Origin: Fistulifera solaris
Lineage: Eukaryota
NCBI GenBank assembly: GCA_030295235.1
Contig: AP026125.1
Coordinates: 1,426,001 to 1,490,000 of the forward strand
Direction of reading: 5' to 3'
Length of the DNA: 64,000 nt
The notes under the pieces are model-generated. The model saw nothing but the letters and a program-made list of their open reading frames with translations, was not told where the DNA came from and did not search any database. Positions within the stretch are counted from its first letter, which is position 1; every line of letters begins with the position of its first letter. The translations under genes were made by a program, and so were the position numbers. Shown here one piece after another: positions 1,990-53,199 of the stretch.

Positions 1990-3264
1990 ATGAAAGCATA
2001 TATGACATTCCAGCATGGCAGCCAGCCGCTGGGGACATTGTACATGGAACTGGAACAAAAGGTCGTTCCCAAAACCGTGCGAAATTTTGAGGCATTTCTT
2101 CGAAAGGGTTACAAGGGAACAAATGTGCACCGACTGATCAAAGGCTTTATGCTTCAAGCGGGTGATATTACAGCAGGTGATGGAACAGGCGGGTATTCTA
2201 TTTACGGGAAAACATTTGCGGATGAAAATTTCATTCTGCGACACGATCGCCCCGGGCGGCTGAGTATGGCGAATGCGGGGCCGAATACAAATGGCAGCCA
2301 GTTTTTCATTACGTTCAAACCGACACCTCATTTAGACGGGAAGCACGTGGTGTTTGGGAGCGTTGACTTGCAGAGAAGTGGGACGTTGCTGAAAACACTG
2401 GAGCAAATTAAAACGCTATCAAACGACAAACCAAAGCAAGAATTGACGATTGTCGATTGCGGTATCATAGAGGAGGCCCCCGACAGCGCAAAAACGGCAG
2501 CGGTCGCTGAAGCTGTTGATGCGGATGCAGATGAAATCGACTTGGAAGAAGAAGAAGAAGAAGAAGATGTTGAGGCTAGAAACGATGTTGTACAAGAAGT
2601 TGTTGAATCGGAAGATGATGACTCGAAACCGTTAAGTAAATCAGAAGCTTTGAAGAGGCGATTAAGGAAGCTAAAACAAAAGGTCAACCAAGCGAGACAA
2701 CTTAATAGACAGGCAGTAAAAGACGAAGGAGAACGGTCAACTGTCGAGGGCAGTGCGTCCGCCCGGAAGAAACTAGCGGCTGCGAATAAAGAGGGCAAGA
2801 ATTCCACCTGGGCACAACAGAATGCTAAGGCTTTGTCCATTGCCAACGAATCGGGGGTAGATGCGAAGCATCTGACAGAACAGGCTGCAGATTCAGTTTA
2901 TAAAGCGCGACTAGCCGCTGAACGAGCGGAAACGCAACCTCACAAGTATCTACGAGATTTGAAATCTATTCCTCGAAATTTGCCTCAATCCTCAGAGACT
3001 GGTATTTCAACCTTCAACCCACTACAGAATGAAGTGAATCCTGACAAAGAACGAGAAGGAGCGCGACGGTTGGCCCTGGAAATGCACAAAAGAGTGGAGA
3101 AAAATACGAAACGATTACTGTCTGTCAAGCGCAAAGGTGGCGATGACGGTGACGTTTCTTACATCAACAAGCGGAATAAAATTTTCAATGAGAAAATCAG
3201 TCGCGATTATGACAAACACACGGCAGAAATTCGAGAAAGTTTAGAACGGGGCAGTGCTTTATAA
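1990..3264 (+). CDS. Cyclophilin PPIase fused to a SYF2 splicing-factor domain
   Basis: [30 protein letters not shown] and [10 protein letters not shown] (cyclophilin); acidic linker; [37 protein letters not shown] (SYF2 C-terminus). Confidence 0.9.
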
Positions 3265-39862: not shown

Positions 39863-41418
39863 ATGACTACCGCGTCAATTTCGTGTGCCATAGACCGTAA
39901 CGATGCAAGCTTTCCGACGGACACTCATTGTTCACGAAAGGATGAACAAAGTCTACAAACAACGGCGGATGAACATGACGCAACCGAATATCGCAATCCA
40001 CTCATGAATTTGTTCGGAAGCAATAGCACGAAGCGTTTTGATCAAAATGAAACAGAGTTGGATGATATTCGTGTTCTTTCTTTCGTCAGCCGAGAGCGCG
40101 AACCCGGCTTTGACGATTGCCCCGAATACAGCTATGATTCTGACAATGAAAATACTTCACAGAACGATTGTCATGAGACACATGGTTCCGACGACGCACA
40201 CGGATCCTTGCAAGCTTACATTCTTGGAAAGAAATATCATCCCGTTCATGACTACACGCTTCGGAGAGAGGACGAAATATCACTATTTTGGTTCACCTAT
40301 CGCTGCGATTTTCCCGAAATAAAGCCATATCGAATTCAAAGTGATGCTGGCTGGGGTTGTATGTTGCGATCCGCTCAGATGATGCTCTGTCAAGTCTTAC
40401 GACTACATTACAAATCACGTACATGGAGACCTCCCAAGTCGTTAGCGGCACGGCGACAAGACCCATTCGTCAGTAGATTGATGACTTGGTTTGCCGATTT
40501 TCCATCGACCACAGAATGTTTTTATTCCTTTCAGAATATGGTAGCGGCTGGACTGAACTATGATAAATTACCTGGCGAATGGTACGGACCTGGCACGGTG
40601 AGCTTTGTCATTCGCGATTTAGTAGCTATACATGACCAACAAAGGCAAGAGCTCGACAAGACTCTATTTCGAGTGCACGTTGCAAGTCAAGGCACGGTGT
40701 ATCGTGACGAGGTACGCCGATTAATGATACAAGGCGCAAATACCGCTGCAGCTCTTACAAAAGGAGGAACCGCATCGAGGCCAGGTGCTGCGCATCCGCT
40801 AGACCACGCTGCTTGGGAAGAAGATCATCTTGAAAAAGTACCCGACTGGGACACTGCCTTGCTGCTATTGATCCCTTTGCGTTTGGGTCTGAAAACATTT
40901 AATTTGGACTACGTCCGAGCACTTGCACATACCTTTTCGTTGCCTCAGTCTGTCGGCGTGTTGGGGGTCGCCCACGTGGAGCGCGGTATTTTTACGGCGC
41001 ATTTTCCGATGGATCAAAAATTTTTGGTCTCGATCCGCATACTGTTCAAGCTGCACCACAGCGTGCTTCTGTGAGCATCAACGGAGAGTTGTCGTCAATG
41101 ATAGATTTATCAGACGAAAATCTTCGGTCCATACATACAGCCTACCCCGAATCTATTTCGCTCGAGAAAATGGATCCGAGCATCACCCTTGGGTTTTACT
41201 GTGAAAACGAACGTGATTTACAATTTATTTTTGAAAGCGTACAACAGTGGAAGACCGAAAATCCTGGGTCGCCGGAGCTGTTTACGACGGCAAATTATTC
41301 GCCGGACTACGCAGCAAATATTTCGTCAACCATGAAGAAAATCATGCTATCCAGTTCCTCGCTCCTTGACACGGAGGAAGATCAAATAAGCGACGAAGAT
41401 GACTATGTCATGCTGTGA
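39863..41418 (+). CDS. ATG4: Autophagy cysteine protease ATG4 (frameshifts ~40965-41070)
   Basis: WFTYR..SDAGWGCMLRSAQM, PGEWYGP, LIPLRLG, LDPHTVQ (alternate frame) and MDPSITLGFY. Confidence 0.93.
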
Positions 41419-42832: not shown

Positions 42833-45800
42833 TTAGTCTTCCCCAGAATCGTCGTTGAATGCATTGTCATTTTCGTCAACCGGCGCTTCATCCGAGGGCT
42901 GGACGTTTGTCACTTCCAACAAGTCAGAAGGATCGTCGAGCATCACTTGCGAAAGTTCGGAAAGCTCAGACGATACCGCAACAATTTCTTCCAAAGGTTC
43001 TAGAACGACACAGGGGGGTGGTCCCTCCGACCCTTCTGTCCTCTTGGCATTACGCAACAACCTCGCCGCTCGCTGAATTTTCTTTGTCTCATTGTAGCAA
43101 TCATTGCACTTTGACTGCTATTGCTTCCAACAATCCCACGCATCATAGAACTTATCAAGGTCCTTTGCTTCAAAGCACTTAGAACATATTTTCTGGTGAG
43201 GTAGTTCATTCGTACGGTCAACTTTGCTTCTTGCAATTTTCCCCGTCTTCGGCTTTTTGCAAGCAGCTGGCTTTCTCTTGGGCGCGAGCTTAATGGTCTT
43301 TGTGACTTTGGTCTTTGATTTACCCATCCCCATATTATCATCCATTCCCTCATCATCGGAGTCGTCAGAATCATCACCCTGAAACGGATCCTGGCGACCC
43401 AAGTCACTTTCGAGTCCCTTCTGCCGGTGCGTGGCTAGCTTTTTCAACCGTTCCACCTCAAAATTCTCACCCTGGTCACTATCAGCGTCGTCGTCGTAGT
43501 CAAAACAGGTTTGCGGAATCGTCGGAGGCACTATCTGCACGTCAAAGTTTATGCGGTTTCGATACGAGTGATTCTTTCGATGCTCTATTGCTTTTTCCCT
43601 TGCTCCTTCTTCCCCCCAATCTCGAGTAGAAAAATATGCTGGCCTTGGAATTGAACCAGTGGGTCCGCTTGATGTGTATTCACGACCCAATGCCACCCAC
43701 TGTGATGGTTTATCAACGTTCTTACTGCTCCTGAAAACACCAAGTACTGTTCCGTCTTCGCGTCGTTGCCCTTCTGTTCGGTCTTTCTTTTGGTTGTTGG
43801 CTTGATGGATAACCCCTCGTGGCAGCAGATTTCCACAGCTATTGTTTGTACGGTCTATGTCGGCATGGTCACATGTTTGGCCTCTCTTCAATTTCTTTCC
43901 GGTATGGCATTCAACGGCAAATCGAGAGAAATTTACAGTCCTTTAACACGCGCAATCGTAAAAGTGATCCGAAATGAAATCCTCCCATCCACTCTGCTGA
44001 CCCTCATTTGAATGGGGACGTGTCTTTTGGTTCGAGAGTTATAGACATACGTCCCTTCGTCGTTGACGTAAAGATACGGAAAACGAGGGCTTTTCCGCCA
44101 ATTATCTATGCCCTTGTGAAAGCGATTCTTGTCGCGAAACAGTGTATATGTATCGTACGTTTTCTCCTTCTCACTAACATAGCAAATCCAGAAAAAGATT
44201 TTGATGAGTCGTCTCGATGGTTTTCTAGTACGCAAGAGGAAAGTGGAAAATACCTTTTGTTTTGCTTCAGATTGTGTTTCTTGCTGTTATCTGACCGCGA
44301 TACCCAAGCTAGCTTTGTAATTCGATTGTCCCAAATGGGGCCATGGTGGTGTCCGACATGCCCACGTGGTCGTCTACCACGGAATGTAACCAACATAAGG
44401 TTGTGCAGATGGAAAGTTTTGTGAGCACCATTGCAAAGATTGCAAAAGATAGTCATCATCCGGTAACCGTCACTATCCAGTCGATAACTAAGAAGGTAGT
44501 AGGTTCTGGTGAAAACATGCCCCCGGAATAGCCCAAAAATTCCATATACACACTGTCTGCGCCTCGTTTCTTGTACGTTTGCCCCCAACTGACATGGCAA
44601 CTCACGACGAAGCCATCAACATGGCAGAAATACACGACGGGATAGTGGTTGCATACTGCTCCGCAGATATTCTTTGCAGCGACAATTGTCACTTGTCCTC
44701 TATCATCACTGTCATTCATTCTCTCTCCTATATTGGTTGGCTTCAAAGTAGGGTAAGGAATGCGTTCGGTATTGTGTCCTAAAAGAAAATGCGCACGGTT
44801 GAAATCGGCCGCTTCGTCTGGGTCGGCATCAATGTCCACAGGCTGTTCGGTGTCTGCTAATTGGGGGTCCATGTCATCCTCCTCGGGCTCTGAGTCCGAA
44901 TCCGTGTCCAATTCTGCATCTGAATCAACTTCAGTGGAGCCAAAACATTTGTTCAGTTGAGCTGCATCAAATGGGATCTGTTTCAGTTTGCCAGCATTCA
45001 TCCATTCTTTGATTAGTTTTAGTGGGACTTTTACTTCTTTATGCGCATTCCCCTGGCTGGCGTTAGGAGGATTGGGGGAATTGGAAATGATTCTTGAAGA
45101 AAAAATACGCTCGTGAGTGCAGCGATCCAGATTTCATTGAAGCCCGTCCACTTACTCGTTCATGTAGTAATTATTTGTCAAAATTCTCAACAAATCACTA
45201 TTTTCGGGATTCGTTTTCCCCGTAAAAGCCCCCGGTTCTAATTGTTGGACGCCCAAGTGTCTGCTTTCGCTCTCATCGCCTTCGCTTGAACGACTTTCGC
45301 TCTCATTGCTTACACTTGCAAGTGAATCTTCTAAATCTTCCGTTTCAAAAGCATGCTCGACGCCCCTTTTTGCTTCGTAAACAAAACCCTGAATGTCTAA
45401 GTCTTTGGCGCCGTACGTATCTAGAATGAACGACGTCAGCGACGCCTGTCCCCTGCAGCGAGTGCGCGTAGCACACTTCGTAGTAGGGTTCTGATGAGAA
45501 TCGACAAAGTCGAAAATGATGTCGCCATCGTCACTGGCGTACTTCAACACGCAGAAAACATGATCGCCGATGAGGATTGTGCCCGCTGCTTCCTGGCTTG
45601 CGGTCGCCAGTGCGCTCAAGAACTCATGTAGTGTCCTATCGTCTTTAATCGTCCCTTCATACCCCGGAGATCCGTCAGGTGAGTCAATCCGTTGCAGGTC
45701 GGACAAGAGTTCCGCATTCACATGCAAATGGTCGAGAAAACCATAGCGTGTCGGATTTTGTTTCCGTTTCTTTTGTCCTTGATTTTGCACCGGTCGGGGA

Positions 45801-48370
45801 TATTTGGGTCGAAGTCTTTCAAGTATTGAAAGGCAGTCAAGATCGATAATATTGAGGATTTGAAAATTATCTGGCACAGCAGCAACAGCCGACCCCAGAA
45901 ACAAACGAGCAACAAGTGCCGAAATGACTGGACATCCATTTTCCGACGTATAAGGATTTCCGTCCTTTCCCAAAAAGGGCGGATTTAATTTTCGGCCTTG
46001 AAATGTATTGATGTGGACTTGTATAGGTCGAGAGTCCTCAGCGACCCTTTGGGACTCGGCTCTAAAAATGACAAGAAACAACCACACCGTGAGCGTAGCG
46101 GCACAGAATATCTTCGACGTTCCCGTAACTTACTCTTTTGTATCATTCTTGGCGTGCCCGGTCCGTTTCGTTCTGTTAGCCTTTTTCCAGAAGGGCCGCT
46201 TTTCAATTGTGACGATGCGGGCTCGAAATCGAGTACACGCTTGATTGAATTGAGCCCCGTGTCCTCAAGATCAAACCAGAGTGGTCCCCTTGAGGACATT
46301 CCGGTCGCTGTGTCATTCTCTTCAGCACAAATATTCTCGGAGAATGCGAAAGGTTGCTTCAGCGAGTCCATTGTAACCGGATGCTGGAAAGCCGAGCCGG
46401 CATCTGCGTGTTGTCGAGTTGCAGGCTTTGATTAAGGGAGTAAAAAAGTAAGCTTCTGGTTTGTACTGCAAGAGGCAACTGGAAATTTCGAGCTACTTAC
46501 CGAGATTTCGTTCGCAACTCCCTCCTCCGGTTCATAGACGTAGCCCAGAAACATCTCTCCTGCGCAGCCATACGTCTCCAAAATGTAGGACTCCAGAGCC
46601 TTCTGTTCTTTGAAAAGAGTACGCGTGGCGCATGAATAACGATATTTCTCAATGTTTAAAGAATCGACAAGATGGAAATCGACGTCACCATCGCCAATGT
46701 GATGCTTCAAAATGCAGACAGAATGACCGCTGATGAGCAGTGTGGCCGCTGCATTGTTGCGCGTATTCGCAAGTGCACTCAAAAATTCCCCTAGCGCTTT
46801 AGAATCATCAGCAGGTCCTCCATACGCCGGATAATCCTCGCCTCTTTCAACCGCTTTCACTTTGCCTTCGCCTAATTGCCCGAGTATGTAATTATTAACG
46901 TCCATGGCCTCTAGATAATCACCGTAACTGAGATTCGACATATCCCGAAGAAACTTGAGCAATGGAACACATTCCTCATCAATAATTTCAATGAGCCTGG
47001 CTTCAGAGGGCACGGGATCTGTGGATGCATCAGCGCTCTCTACTTTCAGAAAATCAAGTGCGACGAGTGCCGAAATGACTGTACAACCGTTCAACGACGT
47101 ATAGGGGCTTCCATTGTTATTTAAAATGGGATTCCGGTAACGATCCTTGACCGGCTGTAGAAGTTTTCGTCCTTGAACGGTATGGATGAAGAATACTTGA
47201 CTTGACCGAGAAGACCCGGTGCCTCCCATTAGTCGCGCTGACAAATGCAGTGTCGAGTCCTTTCGAATGTTATAGTCACGCAAAGTACGACCATCCTCGA
47301 GCACTTTAGTGGAAAAGCTCAAACATTGTGCATCAGGAGGAATACCTTCCTTCTCCTGAATCAACGACTTGATTTTGCTTATCGAGTAAAGAGCGTCGGC
47401 GTCCAGGACAAGAGTCTTTCCCGCAAGACCCTTCATAAAGATTTGCAAACAGGGGGCGTTGGGTGCAGGCGTTTGCTCAGCGTTACTCGGAACGGGTTTC
47501 GACGGATAAAATCGAGCGTTTCGAAGACGAATTGGAAACGAACGATGAACCAAACCACGATATGACAAAAATCGACGACTTCGGTGCTTCTGCTGTTTCT
47601 TTTCCCAACGTTCACGGGCACGACGAGCACGTCTAGGCGACAAATCGTCGACAGCAAGTCTGTAAAATAACAAAAAAGCAGAATTTACAGTGAGTGCAGA
47701 TGCTCGCTCTTTTGTAAAGCAATTGTGGCTACTTACGGCATTGCTACTTCCGGAGTTCTCCAAGGCCCCGGTGGCTCACGGTTCTTCCAAAAGAGTCCCT
47801 TCTTTTGTAGTAATTCTTCTTCCTCTTGTAGTTCTTCTTCTTCTTCGACTTCTTCTTCTTGTTCTTCTTTTTCTTCCGGCTCTTCTTCTTTTGCGGAAAG
47901 TGCGTATGAGAAGAAGAGGTCGCACCAACTGGGACAGGGGTCGTGGTGGTTCGTTCAGCAGCGAGGAAACCAAACACCGTCGAGAAATTTAAAGCAACAA
48001 AGGCGAAATTCTTTACTATCGACCAAGAATTTACAGCTCCAACGACGAGCTGCCGTAGACTAGTCATTCGAGCCCAAATTCCAAAGAGAAAAGCTGCCCA
48101 GTCGCTCTTCTTCGGGTCGCGGTTGAACGGGGTATCTTTCTTGTCACACAGTAGATGCTGCCCTTTTTCAAAAGACATGAAACTATCCACCGGTTCATCT
48201 TGAGCATCATCATCTTCAAGACAAGCAAACCGGTTGTTATGAACAACGACAAAAGAGAGTTTTTTGTTTCCGGCAGTAAAAGAACTGCTTTTTCCCGAGT
48301 CGAAAATAAAGCCATTCGAATCCAGGCCAGGCGGGTCTACGATCAAATTGCGATGTCGTTCCGACTTCAT
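42833..48370 (-). CDS. Putative spliced polyprotein: ubiquitin, 2x tegument-like deubiquitinase, 2x HNH endonuclease, AP2, zinc finger
   Basis: Four GTAAGT..AG introns (47736-47660, 46500-46426, 46133-46062, 45155-45093). Two of them join neighbouring ORFs exactly in frame. Several frameshifts and one in-frame TAG (43118-43120). Confidence 0.6.
47221..47448 (-). other. Ubiquitin-like domain (76 aa, ends GG) within the polyprotein
   Basis: [58 protein letters not shown]. Confidence 0.92.
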
Positions 48371-49526
48371 AGCTTCTTTCGATTCGAGGGAAAGCTTTTG
48401 TGTGATAATGAGACAAGACGAGACCGCGTTGTGCCGTTTGCGGCTCCGTTTGCGGCTGGTCGGAAAAAGATCATGATGTTTTCCACAGTTCGAGGAATTG
48501 ACGAGGAATGCATTTTGTATAAAAGGAAAAAGTAAGTTCTATGGAACGAACTGTGCTCGATCGTCTGCTTACGGGATACGGGACCAACCGACCATCGACA
48601 ACGCCACAATGTGACGCACTAATAGGTTTTCGAATTCATAGTGACTTAACTCAAAAGTCCAACTTGCGACATACAGGCGACGATTGCAAAGACCAAACTC
48701 TTCCACAACTGATTGCCCGATGGACAAACGATAGTCACCACTTAACACCACAGCCATGCAGTGCAAAATACGCTGGGTCAATATGATTGTCAATAAAGAC
48801 CGACAACATCTCGACGTGACGATTTTGTGGCTCTCCAAGACCGATTTCATTTGGCCTCTTTTCAATAATCCGAGAGGGTTCCCTCTAATTTCGTTGCAAG
48901 ATATCAACAACCCTCGCTATCAGCGAATGGGAGAGAGACATATTTGGTGAGTTGTTAAAAGCGTGGCGGAGAACCAAGGAGAATTTTCCAAATTTCCGGC
49001 CTTTGTCATCCATGTTAGCCCGGCTTCGTCGCTTTATGTTCGCTCTGCGCTGGCTCCGTAAAGCCTTTGTAAGAAAGCATCATTTCGACAGAAATTAAAA
49101 GGAGAAGCGACGCCCGAAGGTAAATGAATGGTTGTTGTGATGTTGTGATGCAAAAAGATGTGACGAAACTTCCACGTTCTTCGAGGTGTGAGGGATAGGA
49201 GTGCGTCGAGCTTTTCGGTATGTCGAGGTTGGTGTGCGGACGGCGGACGAACGAGGAGGGGGATGCGGGATCGGATCGGATCCGGGATGGCTTACAAAGT
49301 ACTCCGTAATAAGCAACGCGAGATGAAAAACCCTAATCGAAAAGATCTTTCCCGACAACTACGAGCAGCAGAAATAATGGAAAATTTTACTACGGTATGC
49401 TATACAAAGCTCTTGTATGTTGACCGTAGTATTACTGTATCCGGAACTAAGATTTAAGGAATTTCTCCACTCCAGCAAGCAGCAAATACAAGTAAAGCAG
49501 CAAAAGCAGAAGCGATGGAAAAATAA

Positions 49527-50639: not shown

Positions 50640-53199
50640 TTATTGGGACGATTTAAGAACTTCTACAGTGAGGACCCAAAATTTAGTACCAACATGCAGC
50701 CCATAAGGATTCGCATCAGTCCCTATTTCTCCAGCAACAAGTTCTTCTTGGTAGATAATGCGGCCAAGAACAAAGTCGGGTGACCCCTTGATACAATCGG
50801 TCGACAGGTATCGATGCGGACAATTCGTATGAAACGCCAAATACATTCGCTTGCCCCCTGTTCCGCGACCGGTAGGCATGAATAGACCAACATCCCCTAT
50901 GCGGAAGCTGCTATGACTAATTTTGTCATTGAGGTTATTCGATGCCTCCAATTGATGCGTCGCTTTTTCCAAAAGAATTTTTGTCTTCTCTAGTTCTTTC
51001 CGAACAGCCACAACTTCCTCTCCAGCAACATCAGCAGCACCATCCTTAGCGCGTGCTTCTTCAATGTAGGCTCGAGGTGGCTTTGCGCCTAGGCGTTCTA
51101 ACGTTTGTCGCAAAATAAAGTTCTCGTAAGCAAGAGTCTTGGCTTCAGCTTCAATGGCAGTGTTTGAAGCAGGATCGAGAATAATCTCATCTCCACTTTG
51201 TTCATCCGCACTAACAATCAAGTGCTCCAGCTGTCGAGCTGGTTCTTGTCCTGCAGCTGCTGCACTTGTCATCATATTCGAACTTTGCTGTGGGTGCTGA
51301 CTCTCGGCGGTAAGTGTTGATGCACTGCCCCCTCCTTGCTCGGCAACAGTGGCGCTCTGATGCATCAAGGCATCTGCGGCTGAATCCGCAGCGGAAGACA
51401 TCCCAACGTTCGGCAGTGTGTCCAACTCCACTAGCGCCGGAAGCTGCGGCGTAAACAATGGAGGAGGTGTAGCCAAAGTAGGTACAAAAATGTCATAAAA
51501 CGCCGGCATTAAATGTCTCCCAGCACCCCTCAAAACTTTTCTCTCGCTCGGACCTCGTCATCTCTCATTGCCGCCACGCGATCCATCATCGCTGTTGCGG
51601 ACGCCATGACCGCCTGACCATAGGCTCGGCGACGGCGTAGCTCCAACAAGAAGACTCGATACGATTCGGGAAGTTCAGCAACATGTTCCAAGTGAACCAT
51701 ATTTTCGGCTTGCTGTACAAGCGCTTCACGAAGAACGCCAACGCTAGACAAAACCTTCTGTATCGACGACTGAGCCACACTGACTTCCCGCAGCCTGGCT
51801 TTCATACGTCTCATCATACGATTCTTTGCACCAGCCACACTCGCCATCAATTCTTTTAATTGTTCATCATCTTTCAGCATTTGCGAAACCAAATCCTTTG
51901 TCGAATTCGACATTTCGCGAAGAGGAGTAAAAACATTCTGTATCTCGTCATCGCTCTGAGAGTTCATAGCATGTGTTATCCTTTGAACAGCATCCCGGTG
52001 AGCAATTGTGAGCTTTTCTAGTCGCTGCGCTTGCGCTTCATTTATATTTTGGACTGCGTCTTCAACTTTTGACCAAAGGTTGTTGATTTCGTTTTCAGCA
52101 TCGTGATCTCTTTGTGCAATGTCTTCACGCGAAGAAGGAGAAGCAAGCTGATTGAATGTGATTTCAAGCTCTCCAAAGAGAGACAGGAGCCTCTGGTGAG
52201 AATGTAGGCATTGCGTAGCCCATGCTCGCTCACGTTCTACAGGAACCGTGTCAAGGAGGTTCTCCATGTTGCGCCCAGCAGCGCGTGCAATCGACACTAG
52301 TGATGGATGCAAAGGAATTGTAGCCAAGTTCGAAAGAATAGCATCAAAGCGCTGCAAAAGAGCTCCATGTGCGGATGTTTTTGCTTGAAAGTTTGCCGTA
52401 AATTCTGCACGTGTTCGTGCCGCCCCATGATAGTGATCTGAAAGATTCGAGACTGCGGCACGCAGAGACCTAGCCATAACCGCCTGCTCCTGCACGCATG
52501 TTCGACAAGCTGCCATACGAAGATCTGCACCGTCGGCTAGAACACGTCCTTGAGACATGTGAAGCATGAACTGTCGTTCAAAAGCAAACAGGGGAAGATG
52601 CAAAGGCGGCGCCCCGCTAGGATCAAGCGACAAAGGACTCGGACCAGGTGCTTCCGTTGGTAATGTCAAAGTAGTAGGTTCTAAATGACAAATGGGAGGG
52701 TCGGGTGCGTTTTCGGACAGATCAAGCTTCGAGAATAGAAAAAGGCGTTTCGCACCCGAACGCTCAGATCTCGTTAAAAGAGTTCGCGGTTTGGTGACAT
52801 CTTCCTGGATAGGGTCATCTTCCATATCCCCTAGACGCAATGCATTCAATATTTCCTCCGATTGTAAAGTTGTATTTTTGGGGACTTTGTACGGTGGTCC
52901 TAAGAGAAGAATTTGATTTTGTGGAGGGACAGCAGCGGCCAAATGACTGCGAAGATTTGTCACCCTGCAAAGCATGACGTTGTCAGAAGAAATCGATACA
53001 CAACGATAGCAATACTAGATGAATAGACTTCGGAATCAAAGAGAGATTTGAACAAAGCAACCACCAACAAAAGTCTTCCGCAGTCACAGAAAATGCTGAC
53101 TTACGTGAGTTCTGAAAGCAGCAGCTTTATCTTATAGGTCATCCCTGTACTCGCAGCGAGCACGCGTATCGTCACCGACTGCGAATGATTGCTTGCCAT
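50640..53199 (-). CDS. ATG11: Autophagy protein ATG11/RB1CC1-like
   Basis: Short exon 1 from 53199, then an intron; ARSLRAAVSNL; LPESYRVFLLELRRRRAY; C-terminal SFRIGDVGLFMP..NPYGL..FW. Frameshift near 51530. Confidence 0.85.

Follow-up and report, generated by a model that had tools for sequence, protein, structure and literature searches.

A spliced Fistulifera solaris gene that joins a ubiquitin-like Gly-Gly domain to twin domains of predicted VTD fold with an upstream histidine

We describe a gene on the minus strand of a 64,000-nucleotide stretch of DNA from Fistulifera solaris (assembly GCA_030295235.1, contig AP026125.1, positions 1,426,001 to 1,490,000; hereafter the window, whose own numbering is used below). 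The stretch from 48370 to 43933 is one expressed, spliced gene with a 1357-residue multi-domain product, in which an internal ubiquitin-like (Ubl) domain ending in Gly-Gly (GG) is followed directly by two paralogous peptidase domains, termed copy 1 and copy 2. Structure modeling gives these domains the fold of the viral-tegument-like deubiquitinases (VTDs; peptidase C76), and they belong to an unnamed family that has this fold together with the Gln, Cys and Asp-Ser motifs of the VTDs. The family is not filed as VTD in the strict sense, because the feature that defines VTDs, an Asp-x-His (D-x-H) site, was tested for and, in the register given by hhalign, was found to be absent from copy 1 and from the family norm. 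The histidine that is invariant in the family lies upstream of the Asp, on the canonical side. The domains that carry the argument are located as follows.

47221-47448, minus strand: Ubl domain, 76 residues (protein residues 283-358), ending in RLMGG, with a putative scissile bond between Gly358 and Thr359
46501-47220, minus strand: peptidase copy 1, protein residues 359-598, VTD fold
Protein residues 599-707: linker between the copies
45353-46033, minus strand: peptidase copy 2, protein residues about 706-932, VTD fold

One spliced gene with a 1357-residue product

In the raw window, the Ubl and copy 1 share a minus-strand open reading frame (ORF) at 46432-47763 and copy 2 lies in another at 45152-46087; the two are in different frames, and the frame of copy 1 is closed by a stop at 46432. 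An earlier note on this DNA, made from the letters of the window, had placed the Ubl-GG directly before the two domains, which is correct for the mature message but not for the raw window, where the frames differ and the stop intervenes. We aligned contigs from four public runs (X1 to X4) to positions 44000-48600. An extra single base was present at 44519, 46181 and 47802 in contigs of all four runs. The corresponding one-base gaps of the window fall in homopolymer runs (C5, T5 and T4 on the plus strand), each of them breaks the frame of the gene, and the three short homopolymers probably reflect errors in the assembly consensus. The contig from run X1 is a single unspliced piece across the whole stretch and is DNA-like. 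Contigs from runs X2, X3 and X4 lack five segments that are bounded by GT..AG on the minus strand and, because these segments are retained in X1, we took X2-X4 to be complementary DNA (cDNA). The coding region and its introns are as follows.

48370 to 43933, minus strand: whole coding region, six exons, 1357 codons once five introns are taken out and three read-supported bases put in
47660-47736, minus strand: intron 1, 77 nucleotides, GTAAGT..TTACAG, skipped in X2, X3 and X4, kept in X1
46426-46500, minus strand: intron 2, 75 nucleotides, GTAAGT..TCAAAG, skipped in X2 and X4
46062-46133, minus strand: intron 3, 72 nucleotides, GTAAGT..TTTTAG, skipped in X2, X3 and X4, leading from the linker into copy 2
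45093-45155, minus strand: intron 4, 63 nucleotides, GTAAGT..TTCAAG, skipped in X2 and X3
44174-44253, minus strand: intron 5, 80 nucleotides, GTATTT..TGTTAG, skipped in X2, X3 and X4

Removal of intron 2 deletes the stop at 46432 and fuses copy 1 in frame to the linker, and the frame across intron 3 works only with the extra base at 46181. Removal of intron 4 likewise deletes the stop after copy 2 and opens into an acidic region, and with intron 5 spliced the stop codon of the ORF is 43933-43935. When both corrections were applied by script, one ORF of 1357 codons with zero internal stops was obtained; omission of the three bases resulted in 51 stops, and retention of the introns in 57. The continuity of the gene across its domains rests on this open frame. 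No second copy of the gene was found within the 64-kb window.

The protein GAX28433.1 (FisN_4Hu376, Fistulifera solaris, 1326 residues), found by cluster look-up, contains both copies. Residues 1-1277 of the spliced ORF are identical to it, and the two diverge at the 3' end; relative to the window, GAX28433.1 requires one additional A at two A-runs. Its gene model reads through intron 5, and its last 49 residues are therefore probably wrong.

Fold, active-site residues and relatives of the twin domains

Copy 1 and copy 2 are 39% identical over 247 columns (BLASTP, expectation (E) value 2e-41), which is far beyond chance and marks them as paralogues, as the earlier note had proposed; all of the strings that it quoted for the two copies were found. 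An AlphaFold2 model of copy 1, built on a 46-row family alignment, had a mean pLDDT of 81.9 and a pTM of 0.82. Comparison of this model with the PDB by Foldseek, the check that had been suggested for the proposal of a tegument-like fold, yielded six matches at E <= 0.001 (1.5e-6 to 4.9e-5), all of them chains of 8ADC, 8ADD and 8ADB (VTD) or 2J7Q (M48). The VIA Z scores of the model were 18.4 for 8add (186 residues aligned, root-mean-square deviation 3.0), 16.6 for 8adc_B, 16.3 for 2j7q_C and 15.4 for 8adb_A; the next folds were PaTox (9.6), Josephin-2 (9.5) and Mcf (9.4), and UfSP (8.6), ATG4A (7.5) and Mug105 (7.2) scored lower still. Among 24 matches at E <= 0.001 in BFVD, 18 were herpesvirus large tegument proteins and three more were giant-virus proteins. 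In an Atlas feature search, a cluster in which 17% of the members have PF04843 scored 0.95, at a recognition value below the usual mark, and this result is a lead only. We conclude that the peptidase domains share the papain-like alpha-beta-alpha fold of VTD/peptidase C76, a prediction that is well supported by the model comparisons. Kinship with Josephin, considered for a resemblance in the Cys/His motif, was rejected on the Z score (9.5 for Josephin-2 versus 18.4 for VTD). MINDY was not among the best 50 VIA rows listed, which does not exclude such a kinship.

The Gln/Cys/His/Asp set is complete in both copies, and its codons lie at the following positions.

Copy 1, minus strand: Gln374 47175-47173, Cys404 47085-47083, His524 46725-46723, Asp544 46665-46663, Leu546 46659-46657
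Copy 2, minus strand: Gln717 46000-45998, Cys739 45934-45932, His863 45562-45560, Asp883 45502-45500, His885 45496-45494

Across the 46-row alignment, Gln and Cys are each present in 45 of 45 members, and the upstream His, found as GH, DH or EH, is shared by all 46; it precedes the Asp by 20 residues. The Asp of the VDS motif is kept in 42 of 45 (two Asn and one Glu replace it in the others), and the Ser after it in 44 of 45. The second position after the Asp (D+2), where VTDs have the D-x-H His, is occupied by Leu in 30 members, Met in 12, His in two and Ala in one, with one gap. Copy 1 has D-S-L and copy 2 has D-S-H, and the two histidines, upstream and D-x-H, occur together only in copy 2 and in the family member P0036. 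In the model of copy 1, two strands (166-176 and 179-186) span this region, the His being the first residue and the Asp the last. The earlier note had regarded copy 2 as active and copy 1 as a pseudo-enzyme, unless copy 1 used the upstream His. The first part of this proposal did not survive: since both copies carry the Gln/Cys/His/Asp set, copy 1 is not a special pseudo-enzyme, and Leu or Met at D+2 is shared by 42 of 45 members. The fallback fared better, and use of the upstream His would be a family-wide rule.

As a VTD reference, PF04843 was sought in 301 Chlamydiota genomes picked via a 16S pattern, and 28 of them matched at E <= 0.1, one above the cut-off; the control for this profile rang weakly in one of 14 genomes, and weak matches alone mean little. 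Ten loci were returned, from which nine ORFs, each of a different genome, were aligned (L111-L113 and L115-L120); L114, with stops and no long ORF with D-x-H, was dropped. The nine candidates, whose PF04843 matches are weak to moderate, all have the invariant Gln, Cys and D-[S/P]-H (9/9). When 14 family members were aligned with these nine by hhalign, the result (Prob 75, E 2.5e-5, 159 columns) set Cys on Cys, VDS[L/H] on FDSH and DLIDS[L/M] on LFDSH, in agreement with the equation of VDSH and VDSL with the D-x-H site of VTDs that had been made from the letters of the window. The invariant His of the family fell on a column occupied by K, Q, S, L or M in the Chlamydiota candidates, 19 residues before the Asp. 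The published residue-number spacing alone is ambiguous for the register of His and Asp; the alternative register, in which the invariant His is the D-x-H His of VTDs and the Asp has moved, is rejected on the hhalign register and the shared D-S motif. From the spacing and the hhalign register, rather than from a superposition, we infer that the invariant upstream His occupies the same position as the auxiliary His141 of M48. The order Cys-His-Asp read from the alignment is the classical papain/YopT order.

A full HMMER search with copy 1 against 1.84 billion representatives returned 45 proteins at E <= 0.001, and the only match below 1e-10 was the copy 2 region of the window itself. Most of the remaining 44 have 500-700 residues and carry the peptidase domain at the C-terminus. 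A USP8_dimer-type (USP8/AMSH-type) N-terminal domain is present in 14 of the 46 aligned members and an OTU domain in one, and the family profile matches the AMSH/STAMBP N-terminal domain at about 7e-7. The usual domain layout of the family thus mimics that of two endosomal deubiquitinases, USP8 and AMSH, and the window gene is a divergent, duplicated paralogue with other fusion partners. The OTU-bearing member, P0027 (683 residues, from an ENA contig), has its VTD-like domain at the N-terminus and the OTU domain (3.4e-15) at the C-terminus, and in having two ubiquitin-peptidase folds per protein it resembles some Helitron VTD proteins. A word-indexed protein search with copy 1 alone gave no match at E <= 0.001 among 1062 candidates, and one with a 14-member profile gave nine matches, all of them family members. 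The family profile matched none of five Chlamydiota genomes at E <= 1. When residues 283-600 of GAX28433.1 were compared with long proteins, 13 matches were obtained, each covering 22-36% of the query, which is the ubiquitin part only; polyubiquitins dominate the 7981 scored candidates of this search, which is no evidence that an orthologue is absent.

The ubiquitin-like domain and possible modes of action

The Ubl had been read in the earlier note as a domain of exactly 76 residues ending in RLMGG, and it is present as such in the minus-strand translation. The Pfam ubiquitin profile (PF00240) matches it at E 3.5e-17 (62.4 bits, cut-off 25.4), and it aligns with PDB ubiquitin chains from 1-76 on 1-76 with zero gaps and 45 of 76 residues identical (59%); its first codon, TTG, is an internal Leu that the alignment tool printed as Met, and the 46 identical columns were corrected to 45 for this reason. 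The substitutions include I44S, V70S, L71A, R74M and K29L. L8, H68, R72, L73, G75 and G76 are retained along with six of the seven lysines (6, 11, 27, 33, 48 and 63), and both the 76-residue length and the R72-L73-x-G75-G76 tail are intact despite 31 changed positions. The domain is internal rather than N-terminal, with 282 residues preceding it. The protein contains three GG dipeptides, of which only that at 357-358 lies within a ubiquitin tail, seven residues ahead of the first strand of copy 1. By its sequence, the Ubl is a predicted beta-grasp ubiquitin domain with a C-terminal Gly-Gly, but not bona fide ubiquitin.

The remaining parts of the protein are the following.

Residues 1-91: no match
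47960-48097, minus strand: hydrophobic segment, residues about 92-137, with a 19-residue Kyte-Doolittle window of 1.55 at residue 118
Residues 141-210: Lys-rich run, 37% Lys plus Arg, mostly Lys
Residues 211-282: Arg-rich run
After copy 2: acidic spacer
44268-44527, minus strand: HNH endonuclease-like domain, near the C-terminus

The hydrophobic segment and the positive juxtamembrane run could possibly form a membrane anchor. The HNH-like domain matched phrog_959 at 6.2e-10 and three further HNH PHROGs; Pfam HNH_3 matched it at E values of 0.0018 and 3.4e-4, its 20.6 bits lying below the curated cut-off of 24.8. The presence of a putative nuclease fused to ubiquitin-peptidase-like domains recalls the transposon setting of many VTDs.

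The explanation that we favor for the whole, and consider on balance to be probable, is that one spliced multi-domain gene encodes two active thiol peptidases together with a Ubl-GG that serves as their built-in ligand and is most likely cut. Both copies would act on ubiquitin or on a ubiquitin-like tail, and the Ubl-GG upstream of copy 1 would be the ligand of the peptidases. We tentatively prefer self-cleavage after Gly358 over docking, as an event that may occur but that we would not presume. Such a cut would leave the Ubl-GG as the end of a basic N-terminal fragment, which is possibly membrane-bound, and detach from it the peptidases and the HNH domain. A complex prediction for the Ubl and copy 1 scored 0.31 (mark 0.34; controls 0.00), which weighs neither for nor against binding, and in an AlphaFold2 prediction of the two as a single chain the Ubl had a pLDDT of <50 with its alignment rows empty, so that this model says nothing on docking in cis.

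Several observations weigh against the explanation just given. Catalysis, substrate and cleavage are read from sequence and from a predicted fold, and the grouping of Cys404, His524 and Asp544 as a putative active site is read from conservation. Copy 1 lacks the D-x-H His, as do 43 of the 45 members with a residue at that position, a pattern with which a loss of catalysis would be compatible. The sequence link of the domains to VTDs is moderate (the hhalign Prob of 75). No Pfam match was found on the peptidase domain, PF04843 matched none of the 46 family members at E <= 1, and no VTD chain in the PDB was matched by sequence, one search returning only spurious alphaRep repeats. In the Ubl, the Ile44 patch (I44S, V70S) and Arg74 are lost and identity has fallen to 59%, which does not suggest a cleaved precursor under the usual constraint on ubiquitin. 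A Pfam scan detected no ubiquitin domain in the other 45 family members, and neither the HMMER nor the word-indexed searches found an orthologue with this architecture, so that conservation of the GG is without comparison. As to the gene, no single RNA contig of X2-X4 covers the whole of it, and the run type of X2-X4 is a guess on record, the cDNA reading resting on the splicing pattern.

It is also conceivable, though somewhat unlikely, that the Ubl stays uncleaved as a permanent docking or regulatory module, its Gly-Gly being a relic of an origin from a ubiquitin gene. N-terminal UBL domains adjoin the catalytic domains in some deubiquitinases (USP14/Ubp6 type). The divergence of the Ubl (45/76 identical, with I44, V70 and R74 lost) and its internal position behind 282 residues would fit such a role, and fusions with ubiquitin at the N-terminus, at the C-terminus or in the interior are common in algae (PMC6332867). 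However, docking does not readily account for a length of exactly 76 residues and an R72-L73-x-G75-G76 tail, both of which persisted while 31 other positions changed, nor for a peptidase of ubiquitin-cleaving fold within seven residues.

We regard it as improbable that both copies, and with them the whole Leu/Met family, are dead VTD relatives that bind ubiquitin or another ligand in the manner of the inactive insect iVTD domains. Leu or Met at the general-base position of VTDs in 42 of 45 members would be expected of such relatives, and inactive VTD copies without active-site residues have been reported by Erven et al. (PMC9741609). Nevertheless, the nucleophile is usually lost in dead enzymes, whereas this family has retained its Cys and its oxyanion Gln in 45 of 45 members each and the new His in all 46; furthermore, M48 is a case in which catalysis can be supported by a His from that side (PMC9741609).

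Quite improbable, too, is the possibility that the domains are active proteases with a substrate other than ubiquitin, as are YopT and AvrPphB, and that the Ubl is irrelevant to their specificity. YopT-like enzymes, in which the His likewise precedes the Asp, do not cleave ubiquitin (PMC9741609), and YopT-type and Mcf/PaTox-type domains are among the weaker matches (Z 9.6 and 9.4; Atlas 0.87, a lead only), but the match to the VTD fold is far stronger (Z 15.4-18.4 versus <= 9.6) and the fusion partners come from the ubiquitin system (the Ubl here, a USP8/AMSH-type domain in 14/46 and OTU in 1/46). Finally, it is very improbable that the locus consists of two or three adjacent genes, or of a decaying pseudogene, merged by the gene model and by overlapping contigs: stops and frame changes do separate the parts in the window, and no RNA contig spans everything, the listed pieces leaving 46741-46790 and 47185-47216 uncovered, but the three extra bases occur in all four runs, unspliced X1 included, and splicing of the five introns takes out precisely the stops between the parts with the phase preserved, to give 1357 stop-free codons in place of 51 or 57 stops.

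The surroundings of the gene are eukaryotic and compact, and its neighbors in the window include MCM, Nup93, ATG4, ATG11/17-like, cyclophilin-SYF2 and ion channel genes. The gene is flanked by an ATG4-type peptidase gene at 39863-41074 on the plus strand (Peptidase_C54, 1e-51) and by ATG11/ATG17-like ORFs at 50640-52975 on the minus strand. ATG4 is a UBL protease with a D-x-H triad, and its proximity here may be coincidental. An ORF at 1990-3264 on the plus strand combines a cyclophilin domain (3e-40) with a SYF2 splicing-factor domain (4.5e-14).

Comparison with known systems

The VTDs were described in 2022 with an 'invariable' Asp-x-His, and all characterized VTDs cleave ubiquitin (PMC9741609). 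Erven et al. proposed that VTDs arose from YopT-like proteases, with the conventional Cys-His-Asp order of the latter, which is also typical of other deubiquitinases, as the likely ancestral state, and that the switch to ubiquitin was maybe a consequence of the flipped Asp-x-His site (PMC9741609). The family described here pairs the VTD fold and partners from the ubiquitin system with a canonical-side His, so that the flip proposal can be put to a direct test. Ubiquitin cleavage by these domains would mean that ubiquitin specificity does not depend on the flip, and copy 2, with both histidines, allows single and double mutants to be compared inside one natural protein. One could further envisage, as a speculation that we think improbable in its entirety, that the family is an 'unflipped' sister or ancestor-like form of the VTDs that would use a YopT-type Cys-His-Asp geometry on Ubl tails, that copy 2 is a living intermediate of the flip, and that a self-cut after the Ubl-GG would leave a basic, possibly membrane-bound fragment with a conjugatable Ubl and free the twin-peptidase-HNH module.

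As far as our searches and the text read of PMC9741609 and PMC6332867 show, a VTD-fold family that lacks D-x-H and has a canonical-side His is new. To the same extent, so are a natural domain carrying both histidines and the direct fusion of a Ubl-GG to tandem domains of this kind plus a putative HNH nuclease. The VTD fold family is already known, as are algal ubiquitin fusions, some of them internal (PMC6332867). No report of a fusion between a Ubl-GG and a VTD-type peptidase fold emerged from our literature searches; for stramenopile VTDs only the 2022 paper surfaced, in whose discussion a stramenopile VTD lineage is mentioned (PMC9741609). The bacterial VTDs of that paper come from two Chlamydiales and one myxobacterium only; beside these three sources stand the PF04843 candidates that we noted in 28 of 301 Chlamydiota genomes (E <= 0.1).

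The domains resemble VTD/peptidase C76 (M48 and UL36; the Helitron DrT1-VTD2; the Waddlia Wc-VTD1) in their fold, in the N-terminal Gln, in the Cys at a helix start and in the Asp-Ser on the equivalent strand. The adjoining ubiquitin-system domains and the tandem arrangement are further points of likeness, DrT1 having two VTDs (PMC9741609). They differ from VTDs in the D-S-L of copy 1, with a D+2 position that 42 of 45 relatives likewise fill with Leu or Met, in the invariant His 20 residues before the Asp, and in the lack of a PF04843 match (0/46); moreover, the family is known here from sequence and model alone.

In algae, stramenopiles included, ubiquitin units are fused in frame N-terminally, C-terminally or internally (PMC6332867), and the words 'protease' and 'deubiquitin' are absent from the main text of that report. 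The window gene differs from these fusions in the fold of the partner, which is itself ubiquitin-peptidase-like, and in the strong divergence of the ubiquitin unit. Relatives of the window domains share with USP8 and AMSH/STAMBP the layout of an MIT-type N-terminus and a deubiquitinase (14/46), whereas the catalytic domains of those enzymes (USP and JAMM) are unrelated and the window protein is without such an N-terminal domain.

A canonical and a 'flipped' D-x-H triad within one fold family have been described for ZUFSP/ZUP1 versus UFSP2/ATG4 (PMC9741609). That fold family is another than that of the window domains, and there the topologies go with different UBL specificities. A parallel in the order of residues is offered by YopT and AvrPphB (C58), which also have Cys-His-Asp with the His about 15-20 residues before the Asp (20 here). 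In contrast to this likeness, none of their chains is among the best 50 VIA rows listed, the related PaTox reaches a Z of only 9.6, the Pfam C58 profile (PF03543) matched neither the domains of the window nor the family, and the substrates of these enzymes are other ones. In M48 of murine cytomegalovirus, His141 lies 15 residues before Asp156 and close to the active site, and it can substitute in part for His158 (PMC9741609). Like M48, copy 2 has two such histidines, one at D-x-H and one upstream, 20 residues ahead of the Asp; the difference is that the D-x-H His is the main base of M48, whereas the family of the window conserves only the upstream His.

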